Origin: Rikenellaceae bacterium DTU049
GTDB taxonomy: Bacteria; Bacteroidota; Bacteroidia; Bacteroidales; DTU049
DNA length: 60,521 nt
Direction: 5' to 3'
Assembly: GCA_001513285.1 (NCBI GenBank)
Contig: LFTI01000087.1
Location: forward strand, 1 to 60,521
This document shows, piece by piece, positions 8,888-33,971 of this stretch. A program made the position numbers and the translations under genes. Every line of letters starts with the position of its first letter. Positions within the stretch are counted from its first letter, which is position 1. The notes beneath the pieces are model-generated. The model saw only the letters and a program-made list of their open reading frames with translations, had not been told where the DNA came from and did not search any database.

Positions 8888-9079
8888 TTGTTTTTTATTT
8901 ATTGCAAATTTAAAATAATTTTTTAAATAAATGATTAATTTAATAAAAAAAATTGATTATTTAGAAATTAAAATTTAAAAAAATACACTGATAATTAATA
9001 TAATTATATCTAAAGTAATTATAAAAATTAAATCTAGAGAGAAATATAAAATGGGAGATTATGAATAGAAAAATAATAT

Positions 9080-10087
9080 TTATGTTAGGTTTTCTATTGG
9101 TTTATTTCTAAGCTTAATATATTCGTACCATGCACGCCTATCTGACGCCGCTAAATTTAATATCCTCCCCACATCCTCTATTAATTTATTTAATAAATAC
9201 TTGTGCTTCACTATATACCACATTATATAACTCTGTAAATATTTCGTAGCTACTCCTCTAAACTGCTTGTCTATCCACTTCGCAAACCTTACTGTATGCT
9301 GTCTCACTGTATTTATGTTGTATGTATCATTCTGATCTTTCACTAGTTCTCTTTTTACTGTCTTACTCTTTAAATTCTTTGACCTAAATTTCTTGAATTC
9401 TTTCCTATCTTCTCCACATATAGTGCTACTTGTAGATACTTTTTTTCTTAATATCTTTTCTATTTTCACCTTCTTTATTTTATCAAAGCATATTAGATTG
9501 AATAGCATATTGCCACTTCTGTCTTTCATCGCTAGCACTGCCACATTGTGCTGCTTCTTCTCCTGAGCTATCAAATATTCTTCTTTGCTTTTATATCTTC
9601 TACCTTTTTCTGAATATTTCATCAGCAACTCTTCGAGTTCCATTATCCCAAAAAAGTTAACATTATCATCGAAGCTCCTCAATGCTGTCAATATTCTATG
9701 TCTCCATTCGAAACTTGTCGTTAGATCTATTCCTATTTCTTTAGCACATTGGCGTAAACTTTTTCCTTCGAGCATACAGAGAATGTAGTCCAGCATTAAT
9801 TCTTTTTTATGCAGATTGTAAACAAAAGTACCGGTTGTAACTCGGAAGTTTTTGCCACATTCTTTACATTGATAGAGCTGCTGACCTTGTTGATGACCAT
9901 TCTTTATAATGTTTATGCTCTCACATTTGGGACATTGTGGCGATACACTTTGAGCCTTGAGACCTTGGTAGTCTACTACATCTGCATCTTTTTGTTTTAA
10001 TAGGTAAAAAAGTCCATCGAGGAATGCTAAATGCTCTTGTTTGCCCATAGATAAATGTTCTACTAGATTATCAACTAATTGTTTCAT
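9080..10087 (-). CDS. IS1595-family transposase-like protein, copy 1 (catalytic residues degenerate)
   Basis: CPKC..CKEC zinc ribbon, HTH ending WRHRIL, FRGVATKYLQSYIMWY signature; ELEE in place of E.DE. Confidence 0.85.
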   Translation of the reverse strand: MKQLVDNLVEHLSMGKQEHLAFLDGLFYLLKQKDADVVDYQGLKAQSVSPQCPKCESINIIKNGHQQGQQLYQCKECGKNFRVTTGTFVYNLHKKELMLDYILCMLEGKSLRQCAKEIGIDLTTSFEWRHRILTALRSFDDNVNFFGIMELEELLMKYSEKGRRYKSKEEYLIAQEKKQHNVAVLAMKDRSGNMLFNLICFDKIKKVKIEKILRKKVSTSSTICGEDRKEFKKFRSKNLKSKTVKRELVKDQNDTYNINTVRQHTVRFAKWIDKQFRGVATKYLQSYIMWYIVKHKYLLNKLIEDVGRILNLAASDRRAWYEYIKLRNKPIENLT

Positions 10088-10223
10088 AATTAATTATTTT
10101 TTATAAAATTAATTAAAATTTGGAAATGTAATCAAATAAATTTCCAAACAATAATTATTTTATTTCTCCCACATTTTCAATCAATACATAATTTTTTAAT
10201 ATTTTTGTAAAAAATTTTTGCCT

Positions 10224-10670
10224 ATGCTTTTTAGAAAACAAAACATCGTATTGTTCATCGCCTGGATTTTATTGATTTTATTATTCTTTATACCCTTTAT
10301 TAAGTTATTAACTCCTAGTTTTATACCTCTTTCTATTTATGATACTAATTCTCCGGTTCATCCTATCGGCTGGTTATATACTTTGATGGTAGTTCATATT
10401 TTAATGGTTTTATTAATACCCATTATTATTTATTATGTTAGAAATTTGGTAGTTCAATTAAGGTTAAATGCTGTAGCTTTTTTCCTTAATGTACTTTTAT
10501 TACTTGGTATGTTGCTAATACCTGATATCTGGGCTAAAAACGGTTTTTTATTTAAATATGATACTTTTGGTGTTTTAATACCTATTATTTCTTTTATAAT
10601 GATAATTTTAGCAAATAAATATATTAGATCAGATATTCAAAAAATTAGCAGTGCTAGTAGGTTAAGATAA
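10224..10670 (+). CDS. DUF4293-like membrane protein
   Basis: Four hydrophobic segments; Q.RL motif; C-terminal ANKYIRSD....ASRLR; ATG at 10224 preferred over TTG at 10218. Confidence 0.7.
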   Translation: MLFRKQNIVLFIAWILLILLFFIPFIKLLTPSFIPLSIYDTNSPVHPIGWLYTLMVVHILMVLLIPIIIYYVRNLVVQLRLNAVAFFLNVLLLLGMLLIPDIWAKNGFLFKYDTFGVLIPIISFIMIILANKYIRSDIQKISSASRLR

Positions 10671-10701
10671 TTAATAATTTTTTTAAATAAAAAAATTTAT
10701 G

Positions 10702-10709
10702 TATCTTTG
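10702..10709 (+). promoter_or_regulatory. Bacteroidota -7 promoter box for SRP RNA
   Basis: TATCTTTG fits TAnnTTTG, 5 nt upstream of the SRP RNA. Confidence 0.75.
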
Positions 10710-10714
10710 CAATT

Positions 10715-10812
10715 GGGGTAAGTCTTACACAACCAGCTCCTGCGAACTCCCCCAGGTCCGAGAGGAAGCAAGGGTAAGTGGTCGTAGCGGTGTGATGTAA
10801 GGTGCTTACCCC
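10715..10812 (+). ncRNA. ffs: Small bacterial signal recognition particle RNA (4.5S)
   Basis: Long hairpin GGGGTAAG...CTTACCCC with central CCAGGTCC-GAGA-GGAAGCAAGG helix-8 motif, followed by a T-tract. Confidence 0.93.
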
Positions 10813-10842
10813 TTTTTATTGTTTTAAAAATTTTACTCTATT

Positions 10843-11460
10843 ATGAAATTATTTATTAATACAATAAATATCGAAGATGTTAGAATTATTAAAGATTTTG
10901 ATATAATAAGTGGTATTAATATTGATCTATCTGATATAGAAGCTTTAGGTATTAAAGATAATAATCAGATTTTAACTCATTATAATTCTATCTGCAATTT
11001 AATTAAAAAAGAATTATTAGTAAATATTAAAGCTAAAAATTATGAAGATATTTTAAGAGAAGTAGATATTTTAATGTCTATTAATGAACTTATTACTGTA
11101 AAATTGCCTGCTACTACTGATGGAATAAAAGCTATTATTAATTTATCAAAACAAAAAATTAACACTTTATGTGATAGCATTATGTCCTCTTCTCAAGCAA
11201 TTTTAGCTGCTGAGGCAGGTGCTTCTTATATTAATATACCTATTATAAACACCAAGCAATCAGGTATCGATTCTATGCATTTAATTTCTCAGATTGTTAA
11301 TATATATAATGAGCAAGGATATGATACTTTTATTTTAGCTGACCAGATTTCTAGTTCTATAGAGTTATCTCAAATAGCTATTTTAGGTGCTGATGGCCTT
11401 ATCACTAATATGAGCACTTTCCTAACTTTTTTTAAAAATACAATAAACATCATTGATTGA
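10843..11460 (+). CDS. Transaldolase/fructose-6-phosphate aldolase family protein, degenerate active site
   Basis: VKLP Schiff-base lysine, DGIKAI, QAILAAEAGASY and GAD retained; DTA, TTNPS and SPF.GR motifs lost. Confidence 0.8.
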   Translation: MKLFINTINIEDVRIIKDFDIISGINIDLSDIEALGIKDNNQILTHYNSICNLIKKELLVNIKAKNYEDILREVDILMSINELITVKLPATTDGIKAIINLSKQKINTLCDSIMSSSQAILAAEAGASYINIPIINTKQSGIDSMHLISQIVNIYNEQGYDTFILADQISSSIELSQIAILGADGLITNMSTFLTFFKNTINIID

Positions 11461-11511
11461 CATTTCGTTTAAAATATATAACAAATTTGATAATTAATAA
11501 AATAAAAAAAT

Positions 11512-12159
11512 ATGTTATTAAAGATTCATCCAGAAGATCCTCAACAAAGGCAAATTAATAAAATAGTAGAGATACTAAATGGAGGTGGTATTGTGATTAT
11601 TCCTACAGATAGTGTTTATGCTTTTGCTGCTAATCCATTTAATAAATCTGCAGTAGAAAAAATTTCTATGATAAAAAAAATAGATTTCAATAAAGCTACT
11701 TTTTCGTTTTTAGGCTCTAATTTATCTATTCTAAGTGAATATACTAAACCTATTCCTAATGAAATTTTTAGATTAATGAAATCTGTCTTACCAGGTCCAT
11801 ATACATTTATTTTACCTATTAATAATAAAATACCTAAAATTTTAGAAAATCGTAGAAAAACTATTGGAATACGTGTACCAGATAATAAAATTGTTCACGC
11901 CATTGTAGACACTATTGGGCATCCCATAGTTTCTTCTTCTATTAAAGTAAATGAGCAGATAGGCAATGAATATATTTCAGATCCAGAGCTTATCTATGAA
12001 ATGTATATGGATTTAGTAGATGCTGTTATAGATGGAGGTCCAGGTGGTCTCATACCTAGTACTGTGATAGATGCTACTGGTGAAATACCCGTTTTAGTTA
12101 GGGAGGGAGCAGGATCAATTAATTTTTTAGATTTGTTAGATGAAGGAGAAAATATTTAA
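11512..12159 (+). CDS. Sua5/YciO/YrdC family protein (YciO-like)
   Basis: IHPEDPQ.R, PTDSVYA, LPGPYTFIL, RKTIGIRVPD, PSTVID motifs. Confidence 0.9.
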   Translation: MLLKIHPEDPQQRQINKIVEILNGGGIVIIPTDSVYAFAANPFNKSAVEKISMIKKIDFNKATFSFLGSNLSILSEYTKPIPNEIFRLMKSVLPGPYTFILPINNKIPKILENRRKTIGIRVPDNKIVHAIVDTIGHPIVSSSIKVNEQIGNEYISDPELIYEMYMDLVDAVIDGGPGGLIPSTVIDATGEIPVLVREGAGSINFLDLLDEGENI

Positions 12160-12463
12160 CTTTTTTCATTATACGATTAAAAATAAATCCATTGAAAATT
12201 ATTTTAATGTTCTAAATAATGATTCCATTAGAATAGAACGAATTATTTCCTTTGGGCAGCAAAGTCCCCCAGATTTTTGGTATGATCAAGATGAGAATGA
12301 ATGGATAATGTTGCTAAAAGGTAAGGCTAAATTAGAATTTATAGATAGAAAAATTACTCTACAAAAAGGAGATTGCTTACTCATACCTGCTCATGAGAAA
12401 CATAGAGTAGCTTATACTCATAAATACAAACCTACTATTTGGTTAGCAGTTTTTTTTAGATAA
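12140..12463 (+). CDS. Cupin domain protein
   Basis: IERIISFGQ.SP..FWYDQ.E.EW, IPAH.KHRV..T, TIWLAVF. Confidence 0.85.
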   Translation: MKEKIFNFFHYTIKNKSIENYFNVLNNDSIRIERIISFGQQSPPDFWYDQDENEWIMLLKGKAKLEFIDRKITLQKGDCLLIPAHEKHRVAYTHKYKPTIWLAVFFR

Positions 12464-12534
12464 ATCTATCTATAGTATAGTATATAGCTCAATCAAATTA
12501 GATGTAATCAACTAATATACTATATATCAATATC

Positions 12535-14484
12535 TTACTGAAATTTTAGTTTCCACTTGTCTATTTCTATTTTTTTAAAATCTATGCTATCTGGCAGGCT
12601 ATTTATTTCTTTTTTATTTCCTATGATATATACATCATCAGCATTAGAAATTATAGGATTATTAATATAAAATGAATGAGTTTTTACTTTTTCATTTATT
12701 TCATATTTATTTTTTTCTTTACAGAAATAATATGTACAAAAATCATCTATTTTTGACTGAACATTTGGTAAATCTACTGAATCTGGTTTAATAACAAGAT
12801 AATTAAATTTTTGTTGTTCTTTTTGCCCAATTATTGCATATTTATAATTTAATGATTCAAAAGAGGGATTGTATTGAATTCTTTTTATTAACGAAAAATT
12901 ATAGGTTATACCAAAGAGTAAGACAGCAGTTAATAAATATGGAAAAATTTTTATTTCTTTAAAATAAATTTTAATTGTTATCAATATAATTATTATTCCT
13001 ATCATTATTGCTGACAATGGCGTTAGAAAAATATTAGGTATAGTAGAGTAAGGTAAATCAGATATCATTCCGATAAAATTTATAAATATTTTAACTAAGA
13101 ATGAAAATATTATTGCAATAAATTCACCTATTACGGGTATAAACGAGAATATTATTGTAATAAATCCCGCATAAATCAATAAAGAAGCGAATGGTACTGC
13201 CATTAAATTTGCAATTATAAAATAAGTAGGAAATTGATGAAAATAAAATAATGTAAATGGTAATGTGCCTAACTGTGCAGCCATGGTAACTGATAATGAA
13301 CCAATTACCCATTTAAGCCATTTTTTATTCGTTTTGAAAATATTTATTAATGGAGTATAAAAAAAGAATATACCTAATACAGCTGAAAAGGATAACTGAA
13401 AACCTAATGAGTATAATTGCAAAGGATTAACAACTAAAATAATCAATGCTGCCGCTGCTAATGAATTATATTTATTCACATTTCTATTAATTACTGGACC
13501 TATTTGTAATAGTGTAAGCATAATGGCAGCCCTTACTACTGATGGCATAGCTCCAACCATAAATGTATATAGCCATAATGTTATTATTGCTAATGGTATT
13601 GTAATTTTATTTTTATATTTTAATGGAATTATTAATGAAAATAGTAAATATATTGCTCCATAAATTATAGCTACATGAAGTCCAGAAATAGCTAAAATAT
13701 GTACAACTCCTGCTTGTTGAAAGTCTTTTATTATATCTGCATCCATTACATCTTTATATCCTAATAGCATTGCACTTATTAAGTTAGCAGATGTGTTATC
13801 TTGAATATTTTCATAAATTAATTTTATTAGTTTATTTCTAAATATTAAAAATTTCTCTAATATATTACTTTTGCGTTCAACAATTTTGAAATCATAATCA
13901 TTTATATAACCGATATGATATATTTGGAGGTTTGCTAGATATTTAGCATAATCAAATTCATATGGGAATCTGATTTCGTTAGGTGATTGTAAAGAGTTTC
14001 TAAATAAAATCGAATGATTTGAACGATTAAAACTATCAAGAGGTAAGTTGAGATATAATAATACTTTACCATTGGTATTAATCCATTGACTATCTATTAG
14101 CATTTTATTGATCTTTACTGTAGCTTTAGTTTTAGTTTGAGAAAAAGACTTTGTATTTAGTATATCTCCATATAGATATGATGCTTTATCAATATAATTT
14201 TCATAGTAATCTACCCTATTCTTTTCATCAATAGAATAACTTCTAAAATATCCTAATGATAATATGGCAATAAATATAGCTATTGATAAAAATTGCGTTG
14301 ATGATATGATGGATTTAGTATAAAAAAGATAAAAACCATAAGAAATAAATAATAGAAAAGTTGTAGTCAATGTTATGAAATAATAAATATTATGATTTGG
14401 CCAAAAATGATATATGCTTATACCTATTATATATAATAATGCTATTCTAACTATTGGTGCTTTTGACCAATTCATAATCATCAA
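12535..14484 (-). CDS. comEC: ComEC/Rec2 family competence membrane protein
   Basis: FDYAKYL, HILAISGLHV, SVVRA, GFQLSF, LFYFHQF motifs. Confidence 0.9.
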   Translation of the reverse strand: MMIMNWSKAPIVRIALLYIIGISIYHFWPNHNIYYFITLTTTFLLFISYGFYLFYTKSIISSTQFLSIAIFIAILSLGYFRSYSIDEKNRVDYYENYIDKASYLYGDILNTKSFSQTKTKATVKINKMLIDSQWINTNGKVLLYLNLPLDSFNRSNHSILFRNSLQSPNEIRFPYEFDYAKYLANLQIYHIGYINDYDFKIVERKSNILEKFLIFRNKLIKLIYENIQDNTSANLISAMLLGYKDVMDADIIKDFQQAGVVHILAISGLHVAIIYGAIYLLFSLIIPLKYKNKITIPLAIITLWLYTFMVGAMPSVVRAAIMLTLLQIGPVINRNVNKYNSLAAAALIILVVNPLQLYSLGFQLSFSAVLGIFFFYTPLINIFKTNKKWLKWVIGSLSVTMAAQLGTLPFTLFYFHQFPTYFIIANLMAVPFASLLIYAGFITIIFSFIPVIGEFIAIIFSFLVKIFINFIGMISDLPYSTIPNIFLTPLSAIMIGIIIILITIKIYFKEIKIFPYLLTAVLLFGITYNFSLIKRIQYNPSFESLNYKYAIIGQKEQQKFNYLVIKPDSVDLPNVQSKIDDFCTYYFCKEKNKYEINEKVKTHSFYINNPIISNADDVYIIGNKKEINSLPDSIDFKKIEIDKWKLKFQ

Positions 14485-15614: not shown

Positions 15615-15735
15615 AAATAATAAACTCTATTTACACAAATTATTCATTTGGCAAATTTAAAGAAAAAATTTTTGCCATTCATTAATGTTATTTTAAAAAA
15701 ATAATTAAGATTGGCATTTAGACAATAAATTTTTC

Positions 15736-15870
15736 GGTTCTATAATGTTTTGAGTGGGTAAAGATTAAAAAAGACTAATTTTATAAAAATGAATTTTATT
15801 TATTATTGGACAGTTAAATATAAACCACAGAGTTCTCAAAGAATGCACCAAGAACACAGAGTATGATAGA
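15736..15870 (+). mobile_element. MITE left end (copy B, ISL3-like terminus); no matching right end found
   Basis: GGTTCTATAATGTTTTGAGTGGGTAAAGATTAAAAAAGA...ACCACAGAGTTCTCAAAGAATG aligns with 53999-54110. Confidence 0.75.
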
Positions 15871-15943
15871 AATTTACCCCGTGAGATAATTAAATATTCT
15901 AATTTTAATGTATAATTTATTCTGTATCTCACGGGGTAAATTT
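15870..15943. repeat. 74-bp palindromic element with 19-bp perfect inverted arms
   Basis: AAATTTACCCCGTGAGATA (15870-15888) / TATCTCACGGGGTAAATTT (15925-15943). Confidence 0.9.
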
Positions 15944-16019
15944 AGTGAGATAACTACTATCCCACTAATCTAACAAATCCCAAGATGACTAAATAGCATG
16001 AGCGGAGACTTTTCTTTTG

Positions 16020-21171: not shown

Positions 21172-21834
21172 ATGAAAAAAATTTACCTTTTTTTATTTTT
21201 CAATTTTTTAATATTCAATCTAATAGCTCAAAATTTTATTGGCATAGCTAATGTAGGTTTTAATATTTCGCAAGTTGATGGAGATGAGATTTATGGATTT
21301 AGAAAATTTGGAGCTAATGTAGGTCCTAGCGTTATGTACTCTTTTGGCAAAAATAACCAATGGCAAATAATTTTGGAAACTAATTTTAGCCAAAAAGGTT
21401 CTTATCAGAAATATCCCAATACATACGTAGATACTATGAAATTGCCATACTATAACTTAAGATTAAATTATGTAGAAATACCATTTCTTATATTATATAA
21501 TGATAAAAATTTAATCAGCTTTGGTGGTGGTTTTAGCTATGGTAGACTAACAAATGCCAAAGAATATGAATATGGTAATTTGATTAATTATAATACACTA
21601 CGAGGACCTTATGATGCTAATGATTTTGAAATTATTGCAGACGTACGTTTTAGAATATACCAAAAGCTATATGGTAATATTAGATATTCATATAGTATAA
21701 GCAAAATAAGAACTAGAAGTTATGATAATGGAGTAAACAGGTGGACGAGGGACCAATATAATAATGTAATATCAATAAGGTTTTTGTGGTATTTCAATCA
21801 GAAAATAGAAGATAAGCCGTCAAATAAAAAATAG
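21172..21834 (+). CDS. Outer-membrane beta-barrel (porin/PorT-like family) protein
   Basis: Signal peptide; G.N.SQVDGD...GF.K.G; SQKGS; LNYVEIP. Confidence 0.75.
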   Translation: MKKIYLFLFFNFLIFNLIAQNFIGIANVGFNISQVDGDEIYGFRKFGANVGPSVMYSFGKNNQWQIILETNFSQKGSYQKYPNTYVDTMKLPYYNLRLNYVEIPFLILYNDKNLISFGGGFSYGRLTNAKEYEYGNLINYNTLRGPYDANDFEIIADVRFRIYQKLYGNIRYSYSISKIRTRSYDNGVNRWTRDQYNNVISIRFLWYFNQKIEDKPSNKK

Positions 21835-21878
21835 TAAATTATTCAAATGTGTTAAGAGGGAAAGTAAACATGTTAATA

Positions 21879-22954
21879 TGTTATACTTTAAATATTTTAT
21901 TATTTTAATAAATTTTATTAATTTTGTACAAATTTTATAATTATGAAAGAATTATTAGAAAACATCGATAAATACTTGGCTCTACCTAAGGATCACAAGC
22001 GTGATTTCCTGGATGAGCTATATCAATATCTCGTTAATCACAATGCTACAGCTGTAGATTATCAAAAAGTAAAAATTCAATCTACCGCAGCCATATGTCC
22101 AGACTGCAAAAGCGAAAATGTCATAAAAGCGGGGAAAAGAAATGGCAGACAAGTTTATAAATGCAAAACATGCGGTTATCAATTCCGTGAAACTGCCCGC
22201 ACCTTTGTCTATCGTATGAGAAAATATCCATTAATGCTCAATTATATGAGATGTATGCTAGAAGGTAAAAGTCTGCGTGCTTGTGCTGATGAGGTCGGTA
22301 TTTGTCTAAAAACAAGCTTCGAATGGCGACACAAAATATTAGCTGCAATAAGAGCATTAGAAGGTGGTATAAGCTTCTCTGGTATAGTGGAAACTGATGA
22401 ACTGCTAATGAATTATTCAGAAAAAGGTAGAAAATTTAAAAGCAAAGAAGAATATCGACGAGCTAAAAAGAAAAAACATCCCAAAGTAGCAGTATTAGTA
22501 GTTACAGACAGAGAAGGCAATTTACTTTTCAAACAAGTTGGAGAGAAAAAAGTAAAAAATGAGCAATTGAGAGATGAACTCAAAAATAGATTGTCAGAAA
22601 ACAATCTGATATGTGTGAAGCCAAAGAAAGAGTTTAGAAAAGCAGTTAAGAGTTTACAAAGTAAAAAGGTCATAGTAAACAAAAGACAAATTAAACGAGG
22701 GATATATAGTGTAAAGATAGTAGAAAGCAAAATAAGTGATTTCAAGATGTGGTTGAGTAGATTTCATGGAGTAGCTACGAAGTATTTGCAAAGCTACTTG
22801 ATGTGGTTTGTGATAGTGAATAAGTACTTAAAAGAGTTGATAGAATCTGACATTGGCAGATTACTAAACCTGTCATCTCACGACAGATGGGCGTGGGACA
22901 AATATAGAGAGATAGTCAGTCAAAGATATGATTAACATATTGTAAAGTATAACA
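21879..22954 (+). mobile_element. IS1595-like element copy 2 bounded by inverted repeats
   Basis: TGTTATACTTTA (21879-21890) / TAAAGTATAACA (22943-22954), a perfect 12-bp inverted pair enclosing the transposase-like ORF; no TSD recognised. Confidence 0.6.
21943..22935 (+). CDS. IS1595-family transposase-like protein, copy 2
   Basis: CPDC..CKTC, WRHKIL, GIVETDE, RFHGVATKYLQSYLMWF; second Asp absent (ICVKP); -7 box TAATTTTG at 21919-21926. Confidence 0.85.
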   Translation: MKELLENIDKYLALPKDHKRDFLDELYQYLVNHNATAVDYQKVKIQSTAAICPDCKSENVIKAGKRNGRQVYKCKTCGYQFRETARTFVYRMRKYPLMLNYMRCMLEGKSLRACADEVGICLKTSFEWRHKILAAIRALEGGISFSGIVETDELLMNYSEKGRKFKSKEEYRRAKKKKHPKVAVLVVTDREGNLLFKQVGEKKVKNEQLRDELKNRLSENNLICVKPKKEFRKAVKSLQSKKVIVNKRQIKRGIYSVKIVESKISDFKMWLSRFHGVATKYLQSYLMWFVIVNKYLKELIESDIGRLLNLSSHDRWAWDKYREIVSQRYD

Positions 22955-23108
22955 AAAATTTGATACTTCATAACCCCTCCCTCTCCTTTCTTCTCTACAT
23001 CCTCCCTATTAAAAATTTTTTGACTTTTTAACAATTCTTTCAAATAATGATATTTATTCTATTTGCTTTTTATATAAACTAATATTATTAATTTTGTGAT
23101 ATAATTAT

Positions 23109-24203
23109 TTGATGATGAAAGAAAAAATTTTAGAAGCTTTAAAATCAGTAATTGATCCTGATCTCAAAAAGGATATAGTATCTTTAGGAATGGTTCAAAA
23201 TTTGGAAATCAATGGTAGTAAAGTTAGTTTTTCTATAGTTTTAACTACTCCTGCGTGTCCATTAAAAGAAATGTTTAAAGATCAAGCCATTAATGCAGTT
23301 AAGTCTGTAATGCCAAATGCAGATATTGATGTTAAGATTACTTCTAATACTACTACGGCTAGGGCTCATTCAATTATGGGAAATATTAAAAATATTGTAG
23401 CTGTAGTTTCAGGCAAAGGTGGCGTTGGCAAATCTACTATTGCAACTAATTTAGCTGTAGGTTTAGCTCTTAGAGGTGCTAAAGTTGGGTTTATTGATGC
23501 TGATATTCACGGTCCTAGTGCTCCTTTAATGTTTGGCTTGGAGAATGCTCAACCTGAAGTGGTTGAAAACAATGGTAAACAAATTATTACTCCATTAGAA
23601 AAATATGGAGTGAAAATAATGAGTATGGGGTTTTTTATTGATCCAGAAAAAGCCCTTATATGGCGTGGCCCTATGATTGGCTCTGCTTTTAAACAAATTA
23701 TGGAGGATACTAATTGGGGAGAGTTGGATTATCTCATTATTGATACTCCTCCTGGTACAGGAGATATTCATCTGACACTTGTTCAGAATTATAGTCTTAC
23801 TGGTGTTGTCATCGTTACTACTCCTCAAAAAATTGCTATTAATGATGCAGTGAAAGCTATTAATATGTTTAAGGACTCCAATATTAATGTGCCTATTTTA
23901 GGAATTGTAGAAAATATGTCTTATTTCATCCCCCCAGATGCTCCAGATAAGAAGTATAATATTTTCTCTGGACTTGGCTCTATAAATGATATTGCTAAAA
24001 AATTTCATACAAATATTCTTGGACAGATTCCTATCGATCCACAAATATGTGATGAAGCAGATAACGGCCGTCCAGCTATATTAGATGATAATACAGCTTA
24101 TTCTTTAGAGCTTAGAAAAATGGTAGATGCTACTACTCAGGCTATTTCTATTCGTAATGCTACTCTTCCAGAGACTAAAATTGTAGAAATTAAAAATCAA
24201 TAA
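23109..24203 (+). CDS. mrp: Mrp/NBP35 (ApbC) Fe-S cluster carrier ATPase
   Basis: DPDL..DIV, TTPACP, SGKGGVGKST, DADIHGPS, WRGPM, DTPPGTGD, ENMS. Confidence 0.93.
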   Translation: MMMKEKILEALKSVIDPDLKKDIVSLGMVQNLEINGSKVSFSIVLTTPACPLKEMFKDQAINAVKSVMPNADIDVKITSNTTTARAHSIMGNIKNIVAVVSGKGGVGKSTIATNLAVGLALRGAKVGFIDADIHGPSAPLMFGLENAQPEVVENNGKQIITPLEKYGVKIMSMGFFIDPEKALIWRGPMIGSAFKQIMEDTNWGELDYLIIDTPPGTGDIHLTLVQNYSLTGVVIVTTPQKIAINDAVKAINMFKDSNINVPILGIVENMSYFIPPDAPDKKYNIFSGLGSINDIAKKFHTNILGQIPIDPQICDEADNGRPAILDDNTAYSLELRKMVDATTQAISIRNATLPETKIVEIKNQ

Positions 24204-24214
24204 ATTTTAAAATC

Positions 24215-24457
24215 ATGGAATACGAAGAAATTAAAAAAAGAGTCCTTTATCTTCTAGATCAAATGCGTCCATATTTACAAAATGATGGTGGTGATATGGA
24301 ATTCATAGAATTGACAGATGATTTTATTGTAAAATTAAAATTAACTGGTGCTTGTCATTCTTGCCCAATGTCTGTGATTACTATAAAAAATGGAATTGAA
24401 GAAACTCTAAAAAAATATATACCTGAAATCAAGGAAGTTGTAAATGTATTAAGTTAA
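24215..24457 (+). CDS. NifU C-terminal (Nfu) domain protein
   Basis: RPYLQNDGGD, GACHSCPMS. Confidence 0.92.
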   Translation: MEYEEIKKRVLYLLDQMRPYLQNDGGDMEFIELTDDFIVKLKLTGACHSCPMSVITIKNGIEETLKKYIPEIKEVVNVLS

Positions 24458-24489
24458 AAAAAAGTTAATATCAACTAACTTTTTTTAAC
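24453..24489 (+). terminator. AT-rich hairpin after nifU, probable terminator
   Basis: GTTAAAAAAAAGTTA...TAACTTTTTTTAAC near-perfect inverted repeat at the stop codon. Confidence 0.5.
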
Positions 24490-24526
24490 CAAGTACTTTC
24501 ATTTATTAACCTAAAGTGTAATTGTT

Positions 24527-24736
24527 TTATTTGTGCTCATTTGTGTGTATTGGTGGATAATAAATAACAACCCACAATGCCCATAATTTCATCCACAGAT
24601 TTACACAAATTAACAATGATGAAATAGTTTTTGATTGAATTTATGAATTAATTCACATCTAATATCTTACTAAACTGATCAACTTTTCAACTCATCAACT
24701 TTAATTTCTTATTTGTGCTCATTTGTGTGTATTGGT
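24527..24736. repeat. Intergenic repeat cluster: 28-bp exact direct repeat plus a degenerate inverted copy
   Basis: TTATTTGTGCTCATTTGTGTGTATTGGT at 24527-24554 and 24709-24736; ATCCACAGATTTACACAAAT at 24591-24610; TCAACT microrepeats at 24679-24700. Confidence 0.85.
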
Positions 24737-26753: not shown

Positions 26754-26756
26754 GAA

Positions 26757-27584: not shown

Positions 27585-27587
27585 GAA

Positions 27588-28607: not shown

Positions 28608-28623
28608 CTTATTCCTCTATTTT

Positions 28624-30147
28624 TTAATGTTTAAAATTCCTAATATTTGTAAATGACAAAATTAAATCATTTTCTTGACAATAAGATATAATATCTCTAT
28701 CATGTATAGATCCACCAGGCTCTACTATAGCTACGATGCCATTTTTATAAGCTAAATCTACACTATCTGCAAATGGGAAAAATCCATCACTAGCTAATAT
28801 TGCTCCATTGAGGTCGTGACCAAAAATTTTTGCTTTCTCAATTGCTAACTTAACAGCATCTACTCTGCTAGGTTGCCCACATCCCATACCTATCAATTGT
28901 TGATCTTTAACAATAGCAATAGCATTAGATTTTAAATATTTAGCAATGGATACACCAAGCGCCATATCCTCAATCAATTTATCATTTAATTTTTTGTTTT
29001 TAACTATCCATTCCCATTTAGATGTATCAGGGATATAATCATCTCTCTGCTGTACCAAACTACCACCTAAGACACTACGCCACATCCAACTATCAGGTTT
29101 AGCATCTGATATAGAAAGCAAAATTCTATTTTTTTTAATTGATAATTTCTCTATTTGTCCTTCTAAAAATCTGGGAACTATGAGAACTTCAAAAAACAAA
29201 CTATTTAATTTTTCTATAGTTTCATCATCGATAGGTGTATTAAAAGCAAAAATACCACCATAGGCAGATACAGGATCTCCAGCCAAAGTTTTTTCGAAAG
29301 CATCTGCAGGTCTATTGCTCACAGCTACACCACAAGGATTAGTATGTTTAACTACTACACAAGCATTTGGACTCAGTTCATTGACTAGTAACCAAGCACT
29401 ATCTATATCTAAAAAATTATTATATGATAAATCCTTACCATGATGTTTTTGATAGTTCATACTACCATCATGCATATAAAATGCTTGCTGATGAGGATTT
29501 TCGCCATAACGAAGTGGAGTTATTATATTTTTATTTACTATTTCAGTTTCTTTGCCAAAATATGGCTGAGAGAACCACTGAAATATAGCAGCATCATACA
29601 TCGTAGCAATAGCAAAAGCATTTTTGGCTAATAAGCGTCTATCTGACTCTAAACTATTACCATTTTTTATACATTCAAAGAAATGATTGTAATCACTTTT
29701 GTCAGCAGCTACTAGCACATCTTTGAAATTTTTAGCAGCAGCACGTATGAGCGTTATACCTCCGATATCTATTTTTTCGATAATTTCTTCTTCATTAGTA
29801 GCATATTTGCATGTTTCTCTAAAAGGGTAAAGATCTACCAGTACTGCGTCTATTTTTGCTAAATTATATTTGTTTGCTTCTTTTAAATCATTTTCATTAT
29901 CTCGTCTAAGCAATATTCCACCTAATATAGCTGGATGTAGAGTCTTCACTCGTCCATTTAAAAGAGCTGGATAATTAGTTAATTCATCTATTTCTATTAC
30001 ATCAATTCCATATTCATTAAGAAATTTACTAGTTCCACCTGTAGATATAATTTGGCCTCTATAATTTTTCAAAATTTCTATATAAGGTAAAAGCAAGTTT
30101 TTATTATATACTGAAATTAATATAGAATTTATTGGTTTGAGAGACAT
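28624..30147 (-). CDS. purH: Bifunctional AICAR transformylase/IMP cyclohydrolase
   Basis: ISTGGT, GRVKTLHP, IDIGG, LRYGENPHQ, KHTNPCG, SDGFFPF, RNFKH. Confidence 0.97.
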   Translation of the reverse strand: MSLKPINSILISVYNKNLLLPYIEILKNYRGQIISTGGTSKFLNEYGIDVIEIDELTNYPALLNGRVKTLHPAILGGILLRRDNENDLKEANKYNLAKIDAVLVDLYPFRETCKYATNEEEIIEKIDIGGITLIRAAAKNFKDVLVAADKSDYNHFFECIKNGNSLESDRRLLAKNAFAIATMYDAAIFQWFSQPYFGKETEIVNKNIITPLRYGENPHQQAFYMHDGSMNYQKHHGKDLSYNNFLDIDSAWLLVNELSPNACVVVKHTNPCGVAVSNRPADAFEKTLAGDPVSAYGGIFAFNTPIDDETIEKLNSLFFEVLIVPRFLEGQIEKLSIKKNRILLSISDAKPDSWMWRSVLGGSLVQQRDDYIPDTSKWEWIVKNKKLNDKLIEDMALGVSIAKYLKSNAIAIVKDQQLIGMGCGQPSRVDAVKLAIEKAKIFGHDLNGAILASDGFFPFADSVDLAYKNGIVAIVEPGGSIHDRDIISYCQENDLILSFTNIRNFKH

Positions 30148-30280
30148 TTTTTTGCAAAATTAAAAATAAAAATGATATTTTTATTATAATCGAGAAAGAT
30201 TATTTTTTTAATATAAACCATTAATATTTCGCAGAAAAATACTGCAAAACATTAAGTAGAATGAAATTATAATTGTAGCT

Positions 30281-31477
30281 TTACCACCTACTTATGCCTG
30301 CTATTCCACCAAATTCATTATACAATTTATCTTTAATATCAGCTTTTACAAATTCTATTTTAGTAGAATATTCTTCTGCTAAATCTGTTATATATTCTCT
30401 TAAATTAATTTCTGCAGGATTATTACAATGTTTTTTTGCCTCATCTAGGAGACCAAATATTAATCCATCTTCGCACCTATAAGCTTTAGCATCAAAATCC
30501 CAAGGCAAAAGTAAAATTTGTAATCTTCCTATTTGCAGAGCTTCTAAAACATCTGACAAACCAATAATTCCATAGCCCTGATAAATTAAATCGAAATAAT
30601 ATTTTTCTTCATCATATTCTGTTTTTTCGAGCAAAGGAGTGATCTTTTCAAGAATTTCTTTATTAGAAATATTATCAGGATTAGTGAGATTAGAGACATG
30701 TCCGATAATTAATTTTTTAACATCATGGCTAAGGTAATTTTCGAAAAAACTAAGTTGCCAATCAGTACCTATCAAAACAAGTCTACTGATATTTAATTGA
30801 TGAATAGACTTTGCTAACATATCAGCTAATCGCTTATATAGTTTGTGAGACCAATTTTGATATTTAGATTTATATTTGTCTTTAAATTTTTCTCGAGCAT
30901 AGAAATGACGTTCTCCATACAGAGTTTGATCAATTGCAGATAAATGATCTTGAATTTCTTTCCATTCATTACTAGTAATTTCAGCAAAAGTATCCGTTAT
31001 TTCCTGAACTTCATTTAAGAAAATTTGGTAAAATCTCCATTTAGTCCCATAAATATGCAAAATACCTGTTCTATCATACTCATCAAATGCATAATAAATA
31101 GGTAAAAGATAAGGTTTCCCATAATGTACATCTATTTTGCCTAGAGTCAAATCTATAGCAGGCAAATCTATTTGTAATTCAAAGGTTTCGCTCTCCAATT
31201 CATTTTTATCATTTACCCAAGCAAATTTAGCTAAAGTCCTTGTCTCTGGATGTACAAATTGTAAAGAAAGTAAAAAATCTTCTAAAAATGTTCTTCCATT
31301 ATTTAATTTTACATCTAGAGATTTAAAATCTTTTAAAGCATTTTTAATTCTAATGATCCAGGCCATATTCTTATTTTCTTCCTTCGATGGATCAGTATCA
31401 CAATAAACGGATAATACTGGTACTGCTAATGACTCAATTCTTTCTTTAAATGCATTGATTTGTTCCAGGGTTATCAT
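30281..31477 (-). CDS. aeRF1-type (baeRF/VLRF1-annotated, Balon-like) release-factor homologue
   Basis: VLSVY.DTDP, W.IRIKNALK, PYL.P, L.L.G, G..G..DVLEALQ.GR...L, ending GGIAG..RW; no GGQ. Confidence 0.72.
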   Translation of the reverse strand: MITLEQINAFKERIESLAVPVLSVYCDTDPSKEENKNMAWIIRIKNALKDFKSLDVKLNNGRTFLEDFLLSLQFVHPETRTLAKFAWVNDKNELESETFELQIDLPAIDLTLGKIDVHYGKPYLLPIYYAFDEYDRTGILHIYGTKWRFYQIFLNEVQEITDTFAEITSNEWKEIQDHLSAIDQTLYGERHFYAREKFKDKYKSKYQNWSHKLYKRLADMLAKSIHQLNISRLVLIGTDWQLSFFENYLSHDVKKLIIGHVSNLTNPDNISNKEILEKITPLLEKTEYDEEKYYFDLIYQGYGIIGLSDVLEALQIGRLQILLLPWDFDAKAYRCEDGLIFGLLDEAKKHCNNPAEINLREYITDLAEEYSTKIEFVKADIKDKLYNEFGGIAGISRW

Positions 31478-31501
31478 GGCACTACAATTTTATGATTACT
31501 T

Positions 31502-31557
31502 ATATAAAAATTAATACAAAAATTATACAAAAATTATACAAAATTTTTACAAAAAAT
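31502..31557. repeat. Tandem ~11-bp repeat ATACAAAAATT (about 4-5 units) upstream of the aeRF1-like gene
   Basis: Exact units at 31514 and 31525; degenerate units at 31502, 31536 and 31547. Confidence 0.7.
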
Positions 31558-31590
31558 AAATAAATTAATTCAAAGTAAAAACAATTGAGA

Positions 31591-32148
31591 TTAATGATTC
31601 CAGAAAATTTCTGATTTTCCTTTTAATAATAAAATTTTTCTGCCTAATATAAAAAAATAATCGCTTAATCTATTAATATAAGCCATTATTAAATCATAAT
31701 TAGAAATAGATTCATTTTCGGCCAATTCACAAATTTTTCTTTCTGCTCGCCTAACAATAGTTCTAATAATATGACAAAATGACATATCAGGATCACCAAC
31801 TGGTAAAACAAAATTGGTTAATTCACCCAACTCATTAGAATATTGATCAATTTTATATTCTAAAAAAATAACTCTATCATTAGAAAAGACAGGCAATGTA
31901 TCAGTAGAAATTGATTTATTAGCTATATGAGATTCTATAATAAAAATATCATTAATAATAGTAAATAAATCATCACGAATATCAGGTACATCAATTATCT
32001 CATAAAAATATCCAATAAAAGAACATGCTTCATCTAGAGTACCATAAGCTTCTACACGAGGATCATATTTAGGGACATTTTCTCCAGATAATAGTTGAGT
32101 ATATCCTTTATCACCATTTTTTGTATATATTTTTTTAATATTTTTCAT
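31591..32148 (-). CDS. PduO-type cob(I)alamin adenosyltransferase
   Basis: KIYTKNGDKG.T, RVEAYGTLDE, RTIVRRAER, YINRLSDYFF. Confidence 0.93.
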   Translation of the reverse strand: MKNIKKIYTKNGDKGYTQLLSGENVPKYDPRVEAYGTLDEACSFIGYFYEIIDVPDIRDDLFTIINDIFIIESHIANKSISTDTLPVFSNDRVIFLEYKIDQYSNELGELTNFVLPVGDPDMSFCHIIRTIVRRAERKICELAENESISNYDLIMAYINRLSDYFFILGRKILLLKGKSEIFWNH

Positions 32149-32173
32149 ATATCTTGATAATTTTTGAGAAAAT

Positions 32174-32671
32174 TTATGCTAAAGGGACATTAATATGAGC
32201 TCTAGCAATAGCCACACGTTGTCTTTGTCCACCAGACAATTCATTAGGTTTATGATGTATTCTATCCTTCAGACCTACTATTTCGAACATAGGCTCTGCA
32301 CGAGCAATACGATCATTCTTATTAACACCAGCATAAATGAGTGACAACATCACATTTTCTAATGCATTATAACGAGAAAGTAAATAAAAAGTTTGAAAAA
32401 CAAAACCTACCTCTTTATTTCTGATACCAGCTAATTCATCATCACCAAGCCCACTAACTAATTGATTATTAAGATAATACTCTCCGCTCGTAGGAGTATC
32501 AAGACAACCTATAATATTCATTAGAGTAGTTTTTCCCAAACCAGATGACCGAGTGATGACGACAAAATCATTTTTATTAATTTTCAAAATAATACTCTGT
32601 AAGACATTAACAACGACTTGACCGATGGAATAAGTCTTTTGAATATTATTAAGAGAAATGATAGAATCCAT
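32174..32671 (-). pseudogene. Truncated LolD/MacB-type ABC ATP-binding protein
   Basis: Walker A altered (TRSSGLGKTT), LSGGQRQRVAIARA present, ORF ends before Walker B; only 25 nt to the next gene. Confidence 0.8.
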
Positions 32672-32722
32672 AAAAAATTTTAACAAAGATAAAAGAAAGT
32701 TTTATGAAAAAGGATAAAACAT

Positions 32723-33730
32723 TTAAATGTTATGTATTAAATATGTTAATGATATCAAATTACTGTACCGCTCCCATGCACGCCTATCCGACGCCGCCAA
32801 ATTCAGCAACCTCCCCGTATCTTCTATAATCTTCTCCGCCAAATACTTCCCCTTAACTACAAACCACATTATGTAGTTTGTCAAATACTTTGTTGCAACG
32901 CCTCGAAACTTATAATATATCCAGCCAACAAAATCTGTTATCTTCTTATGAATAGTTGATACACTGTATATACCATCTTTCTTCTTTTTCTTAGAAGATA
33001 TCTCTTTGTGTTTGATGTGCTCAGCATTAACTGTTTTGAAAGCTTTTTTATCGCTGCCGCATACCACTGAATTCTCAGATATCCTATATTTTAGAAAATC
33101 TGATATGTGTTCAGCCTGAACTCGTTTATCTTCTAATTTTTTGAACAAAATATTTCCACTTCTATCTGTAGCAGCTAATACTGCTACATTCGTTGGCTTC
33201 TTTTTCTTTAGCTTTTTTAATTCTTTCTTGTCACGCTTCTTTTTGCCTTTTTCGGAATAATTCATTAGTAACTCTTCTAATTCTACTACTCCAAAGAAAT
33301 TAACATTATCTTCAAAAGATTGCAAAGCACTTAAAATTCTATGTCGCCAAAAGAAGCTCGTTTGCAGACAAATACCTACATTTCTGGCACATTCTCTTAA
33401 AGTCATACCTGCAGACATACATTTGATGTATTCGAGCATTTTATCTCTGTGGTGAATGCCATACATAAAAGTACCGGTTGTAACACGGAATTGCCGTCTA
33501 CAATTTTTACACTTATAATTTTGTACTCCATTTTGTAAGCCATTTTTGATTACGTGGCTGCTATTACAATCTGGGCAAAGTATGCCTGTAGACATGGCTT
33601 TTTGCTCTTGATAATCGACAATGTCTTTGCCTTCATTTTTTATTTTATTATATAAATTGTCGTAATACTTGCGTGCTTCTTCTTTAGTGAGGGCAAAGAC
33701 ATCTATTTCTTCTTCAAATATTTTATCCAT
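32723..33730 (-). CDS. IS1595-family transposase-like protein, copy 3 (catalytic residues degenerate)
   Basis: CPDC..CKNC, WRHRIL, ELEE, FRGVATKYLTNYIMWF; start at 33730 (MDKIF) by analogy with copies 1 and 2 (TAATT-ATG, -7 box TATATTTG at 33754-33747). Confidence 0.85.
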   Translation of the reverse strand: MDKIFEEEIDVFALTKEEARKYYDNLYNKIKNEGKDIVDYQEQKAMSTGILCPDCNSSHVIKNGLQNGVQNYKCKNCRRQFRVTTGTFMYGIHHRDKMLEYIKCMSAGMTLRECARNVGICLQTSFFWRHRILSALQSFEDNVNFFGVVELEELLMNYSEKGKKKRDKKELKKLKKKKPTNVAVLAATDRSGNILFKKLEDKRVQAEHISDFLKYRISENSVVCGSDKKAFKTVNAEHIKHKEISSKKKKKDGIYSVSTIHKKITDFVGWIYYKFRGVATKYLTNYIMWFVVKGKYLAEKIIEDTGRLLNLAASDRRAWERYSNLISLTYLIHNI

Positions 33731-33793
33731 AATTATAATATTTTTACAAATATAAAAACTTTTTATAACTAAAAACATATTTATTTCAAAACA
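32728..33793 (-). mobile_element. IS1595-like element copy 3 bounded by imperfect 20-bp inverted repeats
   Basis: TGTTATGTATTAAATATGTT (32728-32747) vs reverse complement of 33774-33793, TGTTTTGAAATAAATATGTT: 17/20 match. Confidence 0.6.
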
Positions 33794-33807
33794 AAAATTT
33801 TTATCAA

Positions 33808-33842
33808 ATAAGAATAACCTGTTTTTAACAGGTTATTCTTAT
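33808..33842. repeat. Perfect 16-bp hairpin between divergent genes
   Basis: ATAAGAATAACCTGTT-TTT-AACAGGTTATTCTTAT. Confidence 0.85.
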
Positions 33843-33971
33843 ACCTCTTCAAAACTATTCCCTATCTTTTTGCATTAAAAATATGAGAGTGTTATCTAAC
33901 GATAGATAAAAATATATTTTGAAATTATCTAAAAATATTTATTAATTTTATAAATTAAATTTTTGATATTC

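Follow-up and report, generated by a model that had tools for sequence, protein, structure and literature searches.

Strand-asymmetric G-rich and C-rich arms at the ends of predicted IS1595-type insertion sequences in an uncultured Bacteroidales genome

Putative IS1595-type insertion sequences of an uncultured Bacteroidales genome are bordered by short arms that, read along the transposase gene, are G-rich upstream and C-rich downstream of the element. The signal has three layers, namely a coding-strand skew, a positioned tip motif and a further tail. Comparison of occupied and empty sites suggests that the arms are part of the mobile element and not damaged host DNA. Three copies lie in the window, by which we mean the whole stretch of DNA that was analysed (60,521 nt; contig LFTI01000087.1 of Rikenellaceae bacterium DTU049).

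Elements and their copies in the window

The transposases match PF12762 with 34–43 bits (Pfam cut-off 27), and all three window copies match the NCBIfam IS1595 transposase model NF033547 with 105–129 bits (cut-off 75; copy 1 has 105). The N-terminal IS1/IS1595 Zn-binding domain NF050000 scores 46–51 bits against a cut-off of 28, and Cys pairs are invariant in the transposase alignment. By these matches the elements are classified as IS1595-type insertion sequences; the assembly contains one IS family only. Each element has an alignable core of ~1.09 kb with inverted TGTT...AACA boxes at the core ends and encodes a transposase of 330–351 aa. Homology between copies always ends ~75 nt 5' of the ATG and ~28 nt 3' of the stop codon (2555 different-site pairs). 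In a three-copy alignment, the window copies share 93–95% of gene DNA and 97% of protein sequence. Their features are as follows, with base counts on the plus strand.

8990..9079, minus: copy 1 downstream arm, C-rich in sense and thus G-rich on the plus strand (9 G/1 C at 9021–9080); between-copy homology ends at the stop codon
9080..10087, minus: copy 1 transposase gene, 335 aa (PF12762, NCBIfam IS1595, Zn-binding domain), sense strand G-rich in the 3' two-thirds (6 G/22 C at 9121–9180); plus-strand skew -0.36 to -0.45 at 9100–9749 and ~0 at 9700–10149
10088..10154, minus: copy 1 non-coding 5' region, conserved as far as the TTATTGTTTGG (TGTT) box, which lies 67 nt upstream of the ATG (three-copy alignment)
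10155..10245, minus: copy 1 upstream arm, G-rich in sense and thus C-rich on the plus strand (0 G/11 C at 10141–10190), unalignable with the other two copies
21790..21877, plus: copy 2 upstream arm with a tip-like GAGGGAAAG near 21856 (sequence, eight-copy alignment), skew +0.35 / +0.20 (31 G/12 C at 21721–21870); the left part is shared with the 3' end of an outer-membrane beta-barrel gene (21172–21834)
21878..22958, plus: copy 2 alignable core with ATGTTATAC box, 5' UTR, transposase gene (21943–22935; 16 G/4 C at 22801–22860) and GTATAACAAAAA box (alignment)
22959..23050, plus: copy 2 downstream arm, CCCCTCCCTCTCC tip from 22974 and then a pyrimidine-rich tail, skew -0.66 (1 G/21 C at 22961–23020)
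32640..32722, minus: copy 3 downstream arm, plus strand weakly G-rich (11 G/4 C at 32641–32720); overlaps the start of ORF 32174–32686 (partial ABC_tran)
32723..33730, minus: copy 3 transposase gene, likely start MDKIF at 33730 in an ORF open to 33778 (Pfam, NCBIfam, nine-copy alignment, skew profile; 10 G/41 C at 32761–32860)
33731..33841, minus: copy 3 5' non-coding core with a strong predicted hairpin at ~33810–33841 (alignment; fold z = -4.07, equalled by 1 of 200 shuffles)
33842..33900, minus: copy 3 upstream arm, plus strand C-rich with a skew of -0.40 (1 G/10 C at 33841–33880)

Skew at the element ends

A sequence-only reading of this DNA had reported a switch from G-rich to C-rich strand at the ends of the three genes. 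Its nine base counts, which are those listed above, were all exact on recount. Six of the nine intervals fall in the outer 2% of same-length genome windows (22801–22860 at 1.6%, 33841–33880 at 1.9%), and the remaining three are found at 2.6% (21721–21870), 7% (9021–9080) and 15% (32641–32720). The intervals 9121–9180, 22801–22860 and 32761–32860 and most of 21721–21870 lie inside genes, and their skew arises because of the ordinary coding-strand skew, which amounts to +0.108 across 1023 ORFs and +0.227 across the 38 IS genes.

The comparison with other gene boundaries extended the switch to the whole family. A score for G-rich upstream and C-rich downstream flanks averaged 25.3 for the 37 full copies vs -1.03 (sd 9.1) for 977 control ORFs (Mann–Whitney U test, p = 1.2e-23). 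For 32 of the 37 copies this score was equalled or beaten by at most 3% of the controls, and for the other five by 6–16%; that of copy 3 was equalled by 6% of control ORFs. At 11–30 nt from the ends of the TGTT boxes, the upstream side consists of 27–31% G and 5–7% C, and the downstream side of 29–35% C and 1–2% G. Both skews are strongest close to the element end, which is adjoined by an A/T-rich spacer of ~10 nt, and have faded by ~90 nt. Five sister metagenome-assembled genomes (MAGs) scored 14–18 upstream and 11–19 downstream, while the most distant sister MAG, DTU001, was weaker (3.8 and 8.3) and the single copy on a contig labelled Patescibacteria gave 1 and 10. At 43 metagenome sites the expected sign was seen upstream in 39 and downstream in all.

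The geometry claimed by the sequence-only reading was borne out: the switch has its centre at the ends of the element, third codon positions included, it extends into non-coding DNA that differs from the 977 control gene ends, and its polarity is the same whichever way the gene points because the pattern is mirror-symmetric (inverted). It is indeed weaker inside the 5' ends of the genes, where the skew is ~0 in the first third, and it survives control for coding strand, with third-position skew running from -0.4 to +0.55 along the gene.

Tip motif, tail and gradient within the gene

The motif (A)AGGGG / CCCCT(T) sits 11–30 nt outside the alignable core, and 67 of 103 runs of at least four G lie at this distance from the core end. 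In the proximal 1–30 nt of 161 arms, AAGGGG was seen 31 times vs 3.6 expected (z = 14.9); AGGGG is enriched farther out as well, with 24 occurrences vs 7.1 expected at 31–140 nt. The G-run tip is not universal, since runs of at least four G occur in 76 of the 161 arms and runs of at least three G at 8–40 nt in 102; non-ORF DNA of the genome has 0.96 runs of at least four G per kb. A G-quadruplex motif (four runs of at least three G, loops of 1–12 nt) was found in only 2 of 75 arms. In ISApl4 and other IS1595/IS1016 elements the inverted repeats have a G-run at the tip, and the putative tip found here agrees with it. The tip leaves the tail unexplained: ~60 nt of unique sequence past it have the same polarity, with G-C of +8.1 vs -0.23 in 1999 control windows (p = 1e-40).

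Within the genes, third-position skew is -0.19 to -0.40 in deciles 1–3 and +0.50 to +0.55 in deciles 9–10. In the last two deciles C3 is 0.09–0.11 vs 0.088 in other genes and G3 is 0.33 vs 0.095, i.e., the skew at the 3' end is a gain of G and not a loss of C. The arms have a G content of 0.20–0.31 vs 0.11–0.14 in control upstream DNA (a two- to three-fold rise), T of 0.28 vs 0.36–0.38, and C of 0.03–0.06 vs 0.09–0.12 in controls.

Origin of the arm DNA

The tracts are missing at all six orthologous gene ends that lack an IS. One clean lineage-specific case is available, an insertion found only in genome G003 that added ~1.4 kb, made up of the core and arms of ~120 and ~165 nt. Its site is empty in G000, G001, G002, G005 and G006, and in these five species neither a G-rich nor a C-rich tract is present at the empty site; the arms are extra DNA. 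They have no template in seven genomes of the genus, where searches returned chance-level matches only (E >= 4e-5). A second site (C24, occupied in G002) is ambiguous, as part of its upstream flank may match the empty-site sequence while being G-richer (GATTTT vs GGGGTT). These comparisons underlie our view that the arms seem to be part of the element.

Arms of orthologous copies can be aligned from species to species and are inherited. The copy 2 downstream arm has orthologues in G006, G005 and G002 that differ by indels at the IS-proximal edge; in G004 the corresponding gene has no such arm upstream. Length differences are located at this edge in all three orthologous arms examined, which would suit the idea of some event at the element ends. 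Between close copies, however, the arms are wholly different even at 97% gene identity (mean z 0.0–0.4 beyond 40 nt, 63 pairs). For the A/T-rich target-site duplication of 8 bp (7–9) that is typical of the IS1595 family, direct repeats gave no signal above chance, the longest within 110 nt of the ends averaging 7.27 nt in matched and 7.70 nt in mismatched flank pairs, with the element termini undefined. Of 3160 locus pairs, 558 do not have both flanks in common; those listed share one flank only, which shows an exchange of flanks, and such exchange and the undefined termini may hide duplications.

Probable gene conversion and the age of the copies

The paralogs C83 and C76 are 97.2% identical, whereas orthologous copies in G001 and G002 share 87%, and both insertions are apparently common to several species. 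A homogenised core and freely drifting arms meet at a sharp border, which is a clear case in nature of IS copies evolving in concert, and a caution that paralog identity is unsafe for dating insertions. Gene conversion would make the identity between paralogs unreliable for dating, and arms without resemblance could just be of great age. Among different-site pairs none is more than 94.8% identical, which leaves no fresh transposition to examine.

Outward transcripts

RNA leaving the element over 78 nt has a median C/G ratio of 3.9 (75 arms) vs 0.85 downstream of 1017 other ORFs. The ratio is above 1 in 97% of the arms vs 34% of the control 3' regions, and above 2 in 87% vs 6%. Outward arms accordingly have the composition of a rut site, a C-rich, G-poor transcript of ~70–80 nt. 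A rho gene is present on G000 C58, where a 590-aa open frame matches PF07497 with 103 bits, and it occurs in G002 and G006 as well. In four of four runs from three studies, contigs assembled from RNA libraries lead out of the IS, cross the arm and continue through the neighbouring gene; they may represent DNA or read-through. One record of ~1.8 kb bridges 22815–24610 in all four runs and shows neither termination nor read-through.

Interpretation

We give about half of our belief to the reading that the mobile element itself carries the G-to-C switch, which was then not written by damage into host DNA. Its first layer would be the transposase gene, with G over C in the sense strand, most clearly in the 3' two-thirds. 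The second would be the true inverted-repeat tips, G-runs of the form (A)AGGGG at the left end and CCCCT(T) at the right end, 11–30 nt beyond the core, which presumably are the ends recognised by the transposase. The third would be the arms, a further 30–90 bp of non-conserved DNA of the same polarity that travel with the element. If a single design is repeated in inverted form at the two ends, each strand runs from G-rich at the left to C-rich at the right for any gene direction. We infer that the arms are old end regions that homogenising gene conversion among the copies does not reach, in which the sequence would have drifted while the composition was kept. The trait kept would be a C-rich, G-poor RNA for ~80 nt leaving the element either way, and this Rho-loading (rut) make-up of outward RNA would insulate neighbouring genes. 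The third-position gradient in the gene is not predicted by element-borne arms, and since arms are unlike at 97% gene identity, this reading needs the gene-conversion argument to hold.

Other explanations account for parts of these observations. The arms might have been added at the junctions, with 3' ends of the flank strands extended by template-independent or slipping synthesis, at joining or after repeated cuts, to give filler made mostly of G, A and T with little C, like terminal-transferase N regions and newest beside the element. The unique arm DNA of the one lineage-specific insertion (seven genomes), the absence of anything in common between arms of copies with 97% identical genes, the skew that peaks beside the end and fades outward, the IS-proximal indels in three of three orthologous arms and a polarity equal to that of 3'-end extension of flank strands all speak for such an addition. 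Nonetheless we regard it as unlikely: unrelated arms may be old for the reason given above, the 94.8% ceiling leaves no fresh event, and the proximal peak is a specific motif common to the family's inverted repeats and not random filler. We know of no bacterial enzyme for strand-biased addition of this kind. Alternatively, the transposase could pick sites that were already G-rich, A/T-rich in the centre and C-rich, similar to the symmetric target GGG(N)5CCC of IS231. The mirror-symmetric pattern with its ~10-nt A/T-rich spacer would agree with this, as would possible homology of the C24 upstream flank to the empty-site sequence (GATTTT vs GGGGTT), but a tract-free empty site kept in five species, the lack of tracts at six of six IS-less orthologous gene ends and a tract length of 60–90 nt, beyond a target footprint and in a genome with 0.96 G-runs per kb of non-ORF DNA, make a target preference distinctly improbable.

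The sequence-only reading had proposed that breaks at the ends are resected and that the 3' single strands lose cytosine by deamination, with opposite skews in flanks and interior. Its end-centred mirror geometry stands: the polarity is right in all four regions (both arms and both interior gene ends) and at third codon positions, the pattern is seen in three of three window copies, and C is depleted in the arms (0.03–0.06 vs 0.09–0.12). Cytosine deamination of host DNA, however, is not supported as the cause and is very improbable, as C to T changes would raise T and leave G alone, whereas in the arms G is up two- to three-fold and T is down; furthermore, the last two gene deciles show a G3 gain with C3 near the value of other genes, the arms are apparently not mutated host DNA, and the peak is a positioned motif. 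That there is nothing special at all, only intervals picked by eye and ordinary coding-strand skew at gene boundaries, could point to the four of nine intervals in genes with a G-rich sense strand and to the two ordinary flank intervals at 7% and 15% of genome windows. This is ruled out by the control gene boundaries (37 copies vs 977 gene ends, p = 1e-23), and its probability is negligible given that the effect recurs in further species as well as at 43 metagenome sites, and given the tail past the tip (p = 1e-40, 1999 control windows).

A broader proposal is that the element ends are long-lived sites of a transposase-triggered, strand-asymmetric process, in which repeated nicking or cleavage followed by biased synthesis or repair, outward and inward, would produce both the C-free, template-less arms of 30–200 nt and the gene-wide gradient of synonymous-site skew. 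We consider this rather doubtful; if true, it would be a mutational or synthetic footprint undescribed for bacterial insertion sequences. Should the arms instead be element design, annotated IS1595-type ends in these genomes would be 20–90 bp too short, and the arms would be two-sided, sequence-free insulators that could explain why a 2-Mb genome tolerates some 40 or more intact copies. Arms made or rewritten at junctions would be a record of a strand-biased DNA transaction at transposon ends, for which we know of no bacterial precedent.

Comparison with known systems

The closest relatives in design are members of the IS1016 group of the IS1595 family, which resemble the elements studied here in their IS1595-model DDE transposase with N-terminal zinc-binding domain, their many copies per genome and the A/T-rich DNA adjoining their ends. 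According to the excerpt of its description used here, the inverted repeats of ISApl4, a member of this group, are 14 bp long (GGGGCTGTACTAGA) and its direct repeats are A/T-rich and measure 8 bp; the G-run starts its inverted-repeat tip as it does in GGGGTTTGTAT... of the c2 copies here. By the same excerpt ISApl4 differs in its length of 712 bp vs ~1.1 kb (330–351 aa) and in its 8-bp direct repeats, none of which are detectable here, where the termini are undefined. The present elements also have a variable A/T-rich spacer that parts the tip from a second conserved TGTT box, and 30–90 nt more of skewed unique sequence, which that excerpt does not describe for ISApl4.

Amoebophilus asiaticus likewise has a small, transposase-crowded Bacteroidota genome, for which the consulted part of the report gives 16 IS elements and no sign of recent transposition (PMC3196728). 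The genome studied here resembles it, as far as that part goes, in being an IS-rich member of the Bacteroidota without different-site pairs above 94.8% identity, but has a single IS family vs 16 IS elements there.

Subterminal repeats of transposons such as Ac/Ds, En/Spm, Tn7 and Mu consist of a short motif that is inverted in both end regions, with a mirrored strand-asymmetric make-up, and lie inside defined termini in regions conserved between copies. The enrichment of AGGGG at 31–140 nt is similar to these repeats. In contrast, the outer termini are undefined here and the arms are unalignable between copies.

To our knowledge, rut sites are not known as regular two-sided flanks of insertion sequences, and a brief literature search, covering parts of the sources, returned no report of rut sites on both sides of such elements. 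The arms are rut-like in composition, and RNA-library contigs bridge them. Rut sites are described as cytidine-rich in the portion of the source consulted (PMC6797219), and the arms resemble them in giving ~80 nt of C-rich, G-poor RNA that has no consensus and leads outward from both ends of the element.

Host genome and insertion sequence family

The assembly to which the window belongs comprises 1.54 Mb in 104 contigs with 29% G+C. Related records are metagenome-assembled genomes (MAGs) labelled Bacteroidales or Rikenellaceae, with anaerobic digesters as their source, and the stretch is present in both RNA and DNA libraries from digesters. It carries three insertion sequence (IS) genes:

9080-10087, minus strand, copy 1, IS1595-like gene (PF12762, NF033547, IS1/IS1595 zinc-binding domain)
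21943-22935, plus strand, copy 2, IS1595-like gene (PF12762, NF033547, IS1/IS1595 zinc-binding domain)
32723-33778, minus strand, copy 3, IS1595-like gene (PF12762, NF033547, IS1/IS1595 zinc-binding domain)

All three score above the cut-offs of Pfam PF12762 and NCBIfam NF033547, and pairwise identity among the transposases is only 46-48%. Genome-wide, tblastn located 69 IS places, 38 of them full length and 36 of these 38 free of internal stops. IS1595-type elements are the sole multi-copy gene family of the assembly, in which no second IS family was found, and their GC3 is 31%, compared with 18% in other ORFs. Adjoining copy 3 are two short neighbouring ORFs (31591-32148 and 32174-32686), which may be a split ATPase gene; the latter has a partial ABC_tran match only (profile positions 1-125 of 137).

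Strand skew at the ends of IS genes

The G-rich to C-rich switch noticed in a sequence-only reading of the window is confirmed and generalised, and its nine base counts were all exact on recount. The four windows lying inside genes follow ordinary coding-strand skew (+0.108 in 1023 ORFs, +0.227 in IS genes), whereas the non-coding flanks exceed control ORF ends. Two of the windows (9121-9180 and 32761-32860) correspond, in antisense, to a C-terminal coding stretch that is conserved (...GR.LNLAASDRRAW). Subfamilies with only 48% protein identity have this 3'-terminal stretch (9121-9180 and 32770-32830) in common even in its nucleotides; its codons mostly end in G, and it may also function in cis as part of the right end.

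In sense orientation, G exceeds C by 13.4 in 37 copies over the 80-nt stretch between -160 and -81 relative to the ATG, and C exceeds G by 11.9 over the 80 nt that follow the stop. These values add up to a flank score of 25.3, whereas 977 other ORFs score -1.03 (sd 9.1; p = 1.2e-23). No more than 3% of controls reach or surpass the score of 32 of the 37 copies, and 6-16% do so for the remaining five. Equally large switches at ordinary gene boundaries had been named as the outcome that would speak against the observation, and the 977 control ORFs are without switches of this size. The claim that polarity is the same whichever way the gene points also holds, as both ends are mirror images: where a strand enters the element in the 5' to 3' direction, it is rich in G and poor in C at either end, and both strands therefore go from G-rich at the left to C-rich at the right.

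Scores in five sister MAGs are 14-18 for the upstream and 11-19 for the downstream flank, and DTU001, the most distant sister MAG, has weaker values (3.8 and 8.3). At 43 distinct sites from metagenomes, which belong to the c2 subfamily (named after copy 2), the expected sign was obtained for 39 upstream and for all 43 downstream. A single copy on a Patescibacteria-labelled contig scores 1 upstream and 10 downstream. The IS on the 2.3-kb contig JAKJDW010000034.1, with 93% protein identity, belongs to a MAG labelled Patescibacteria, most likely through a binning error.

Anatomy of the ends

The stretch alignable between copies, here called the core, extends from approximately 75 nt before the ATG to approximately 28 nt past the stop, limits that hold in 2555 different-site pairs of the same subfamily with 80-95% identity, and it includes inverted TGTT...AACA boxes. 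Anchored on these boxes, the non-conserved skewed flanks (arms) comprise three zones, the innermost being roughly 10 nt of A/T spacer. The skew then peaks at 11-30 nt, where one side has 27-31% G and 5-7% C and the other 29-35% C and 1-2% G, and it declines along a tail that peters out by ~90 nt. This peak goes beyond mere composition and is a positioned motif: 67 of 103 runs of at least four G fall at 11-30 nt, and in 161 arms the 30 nt closest to the element contain AAGGGG 31 times, with 3.6 expected. In c2 copies this tip motif reads AAGGGGTTTGT...TAACAT. It accounts for part of the skew only: over the 60 nt beyond the tip, G minus C is still +8.1 and above zero in 95% of 102 arms (mean of 1999 control windows, -0.23; p = 1e-40), and it reaches +5.2 in the 59 arms without a recognizable tip.

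Hairpins adjoin the ends in some copies and are copy- or subfamily-specific. A stem between G-side and C-side across the terminus found no support, since folds of five of the six window termini are no more stable than those of shuffled sequences (z = -1.10 to +0.59) and the sixth (z = -4.07) owes its value to a local hairpin. G-quadruplexes were likewise rejected (motif in 2 of 75 arms). So were the ideas that the left and right arms of a copy together make up one palindromic target or hairpin (score 21.0 in matched and 21.4 in mismatched pairs, p = 0.56) and that arms are relics of other IS copies (27.3 for real and 26.8 for shuffled arms aligned to seven representative genes, p = 0.08). Just beyond the right arm of the IS on contig C76 (14672-15676), a tRNA-like sequence (ggggtattagctcagctggctagagcg...) begins about 70 nt past the IS gene stop codon.

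Arms, host DNA and divergence of copies

The skew had been described as extending into host DNA, but comparison with related genomes of the genus (G001-G006) gives evidence that the arms are not host DNA. IS-less relatives have the same gene ends without the tracts at four junctions in G004 and two in G006/G003, although the flanks are never adjacent there. No empty sites were found for four copies of the window's own genome, G000 (c2, C24, C94, and C83); every relative is either occupied or has the flanks on different contigs. Searching in the opposite direction yielded two sites that lack the IS in G000 and are occupied in a relative. At C74:50955-50974, sequence is continuous in G000, G001, G002, G005, and G006, and about 1.4 kb is added in G003 only. 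Paralogs in G003 match just the hairpin-plus-core part of this insert (91-93%), and its outer C-poor ~120 nt and G-poor 165 nt have only chance-level matches in the seven genomes (E at least 4e-5). The C24 site, occupied in G002, is less clear: the insert adds only ~1115 nt, its upstream flank may in part share ancestry with the empty site, though with more G, and other species have unrelated repeats at the same spot.

REP/MITE-like elements sit in G006 and G005 at an intergenic site where G002 has an IS. One such repeat (...gaactgggatttgcgggattaaaggattttgggatt...cagggctaaagccc...ccctgacctaaaggtcagggttaa...) is found in the window at ~54100-54230 and 24500-24640 and on contigs C3, C5, C98, C102, and others of G000. 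Non-coding DNA at ~40430-40560 consists of a tandem 'gtgataagtgataag...' run followed by a tandem 'actacattaaactacatt...' run; the genome has comparable 'ttgataagttgat' runs in other places.

Arms of the same subfamily are unrelated beyond 40 nt (mean z 0.0-0.4 over 63 pairs). This applies even to C83:19102-20103 and C76:14672-15676, whose genes are 97.2% identical, yet identity to C83 is only 87% for its orthologs in G001 and G002, and the C76 site is apparently occupied in G002, G005, and G006 as well (flank contigs there stop 115-335 nt from the junction). These relationships indicate concerted evolution through homogenization by gene conversion, with the arms probably outside the converted stretch, and paralog identity is no clock for these copies. 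Orthologous arms are inherited, alignable, and fast-diverging; in all three arms examined, length differs at the edge next to the IS.

No recent transposition pair was detected: none among 80 genome loci reaches 97% identity, and none of 2555 different-site pairs among 80 metagenome loci exceeds 94.8%. Of 3160 locus pairs, 558 do not share both flanks, those listed sharing one only. The metagenome loci L176/L178, L204/L206/L194, and L201/L217, which are 99.3-99.5% identical, have one flank and the whole IS in common and differ completely from the IS end onward; they represent strain-level rearrangements at IS copies. Such rearrangement is common, which would explain why target-site duplications did not exceed chance in matched flank pairs.

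Origin and possible role of the arms

The sequence-only reading proposed, as an alternative to a local fork block, C loss by deamination after breakage centered on the element ends. The geometry of this proposal fits well. Third-position skew on the sense strand of 37 IS genes is -0.19, -0.38, and -0.40 in deciles 1-3 and +0.50 and +0.55 in deciles 9-10, and the switch is, as had been noted, weaker inside gene 5' ends, with skew near zero in the 5' third of all three window copies; therefore, all four regions around the two termini have the polarity expected from resection at end-centered breaks. The chemistry does not fit, because arms (A 0.43, C 0.05, G 0.20-0.31, T 0.28) differ from control upstream DNA (A 0.37-0.40, C 0.09-0.13, G 0.11-0.14, T 0.35-0.40) by G gain and T loss. 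Within the last gene deciles, G3 is 0.33 versus 0.095 in other genes, and C3 (0.09-0.11) is no lower than their 0.088. Deamination is thus not supported. Most likely, the switch reflects the design of an IS1595-type element with mirrored ends, in which a G-run tip and composition-constrained arms are placed atop coding skew. On the boldest reading, the arms might arise at ends cut by the transposase, through strand-biased synthesis or mutation.

A role in transcription might be considered. Read outward, RNA of both arms is C-rich and G-poor (median C/G 3.9, above 2 in 87% of arms, compared with 6% of 1017 control 3' regions). Rho-loading sites have this make-up, and a rho gene is present. Selection acting on make-up alone would account for arms that keep their composition but not their sequence. 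RNA-library contigs span the arm into the next gene in four of four runs, assembled contigs being unable to show transcript ends.

Comparison with known elements

In the parts of the literature available to us, no report of skewed flanks at insertion sequences was found. According to the accessible part of its description, ISApl4 of the IS1595 family has inverted repeats that read GGGGCTGTACTAGA, and its 8-bp direct repeats are rich in A/T. Because these inverted repeats resemble the G-runs outside the core, we take the latter, by analogy with this partial description, to be the real inverted-repeat tips, which would be located beyond the alignable stretch.
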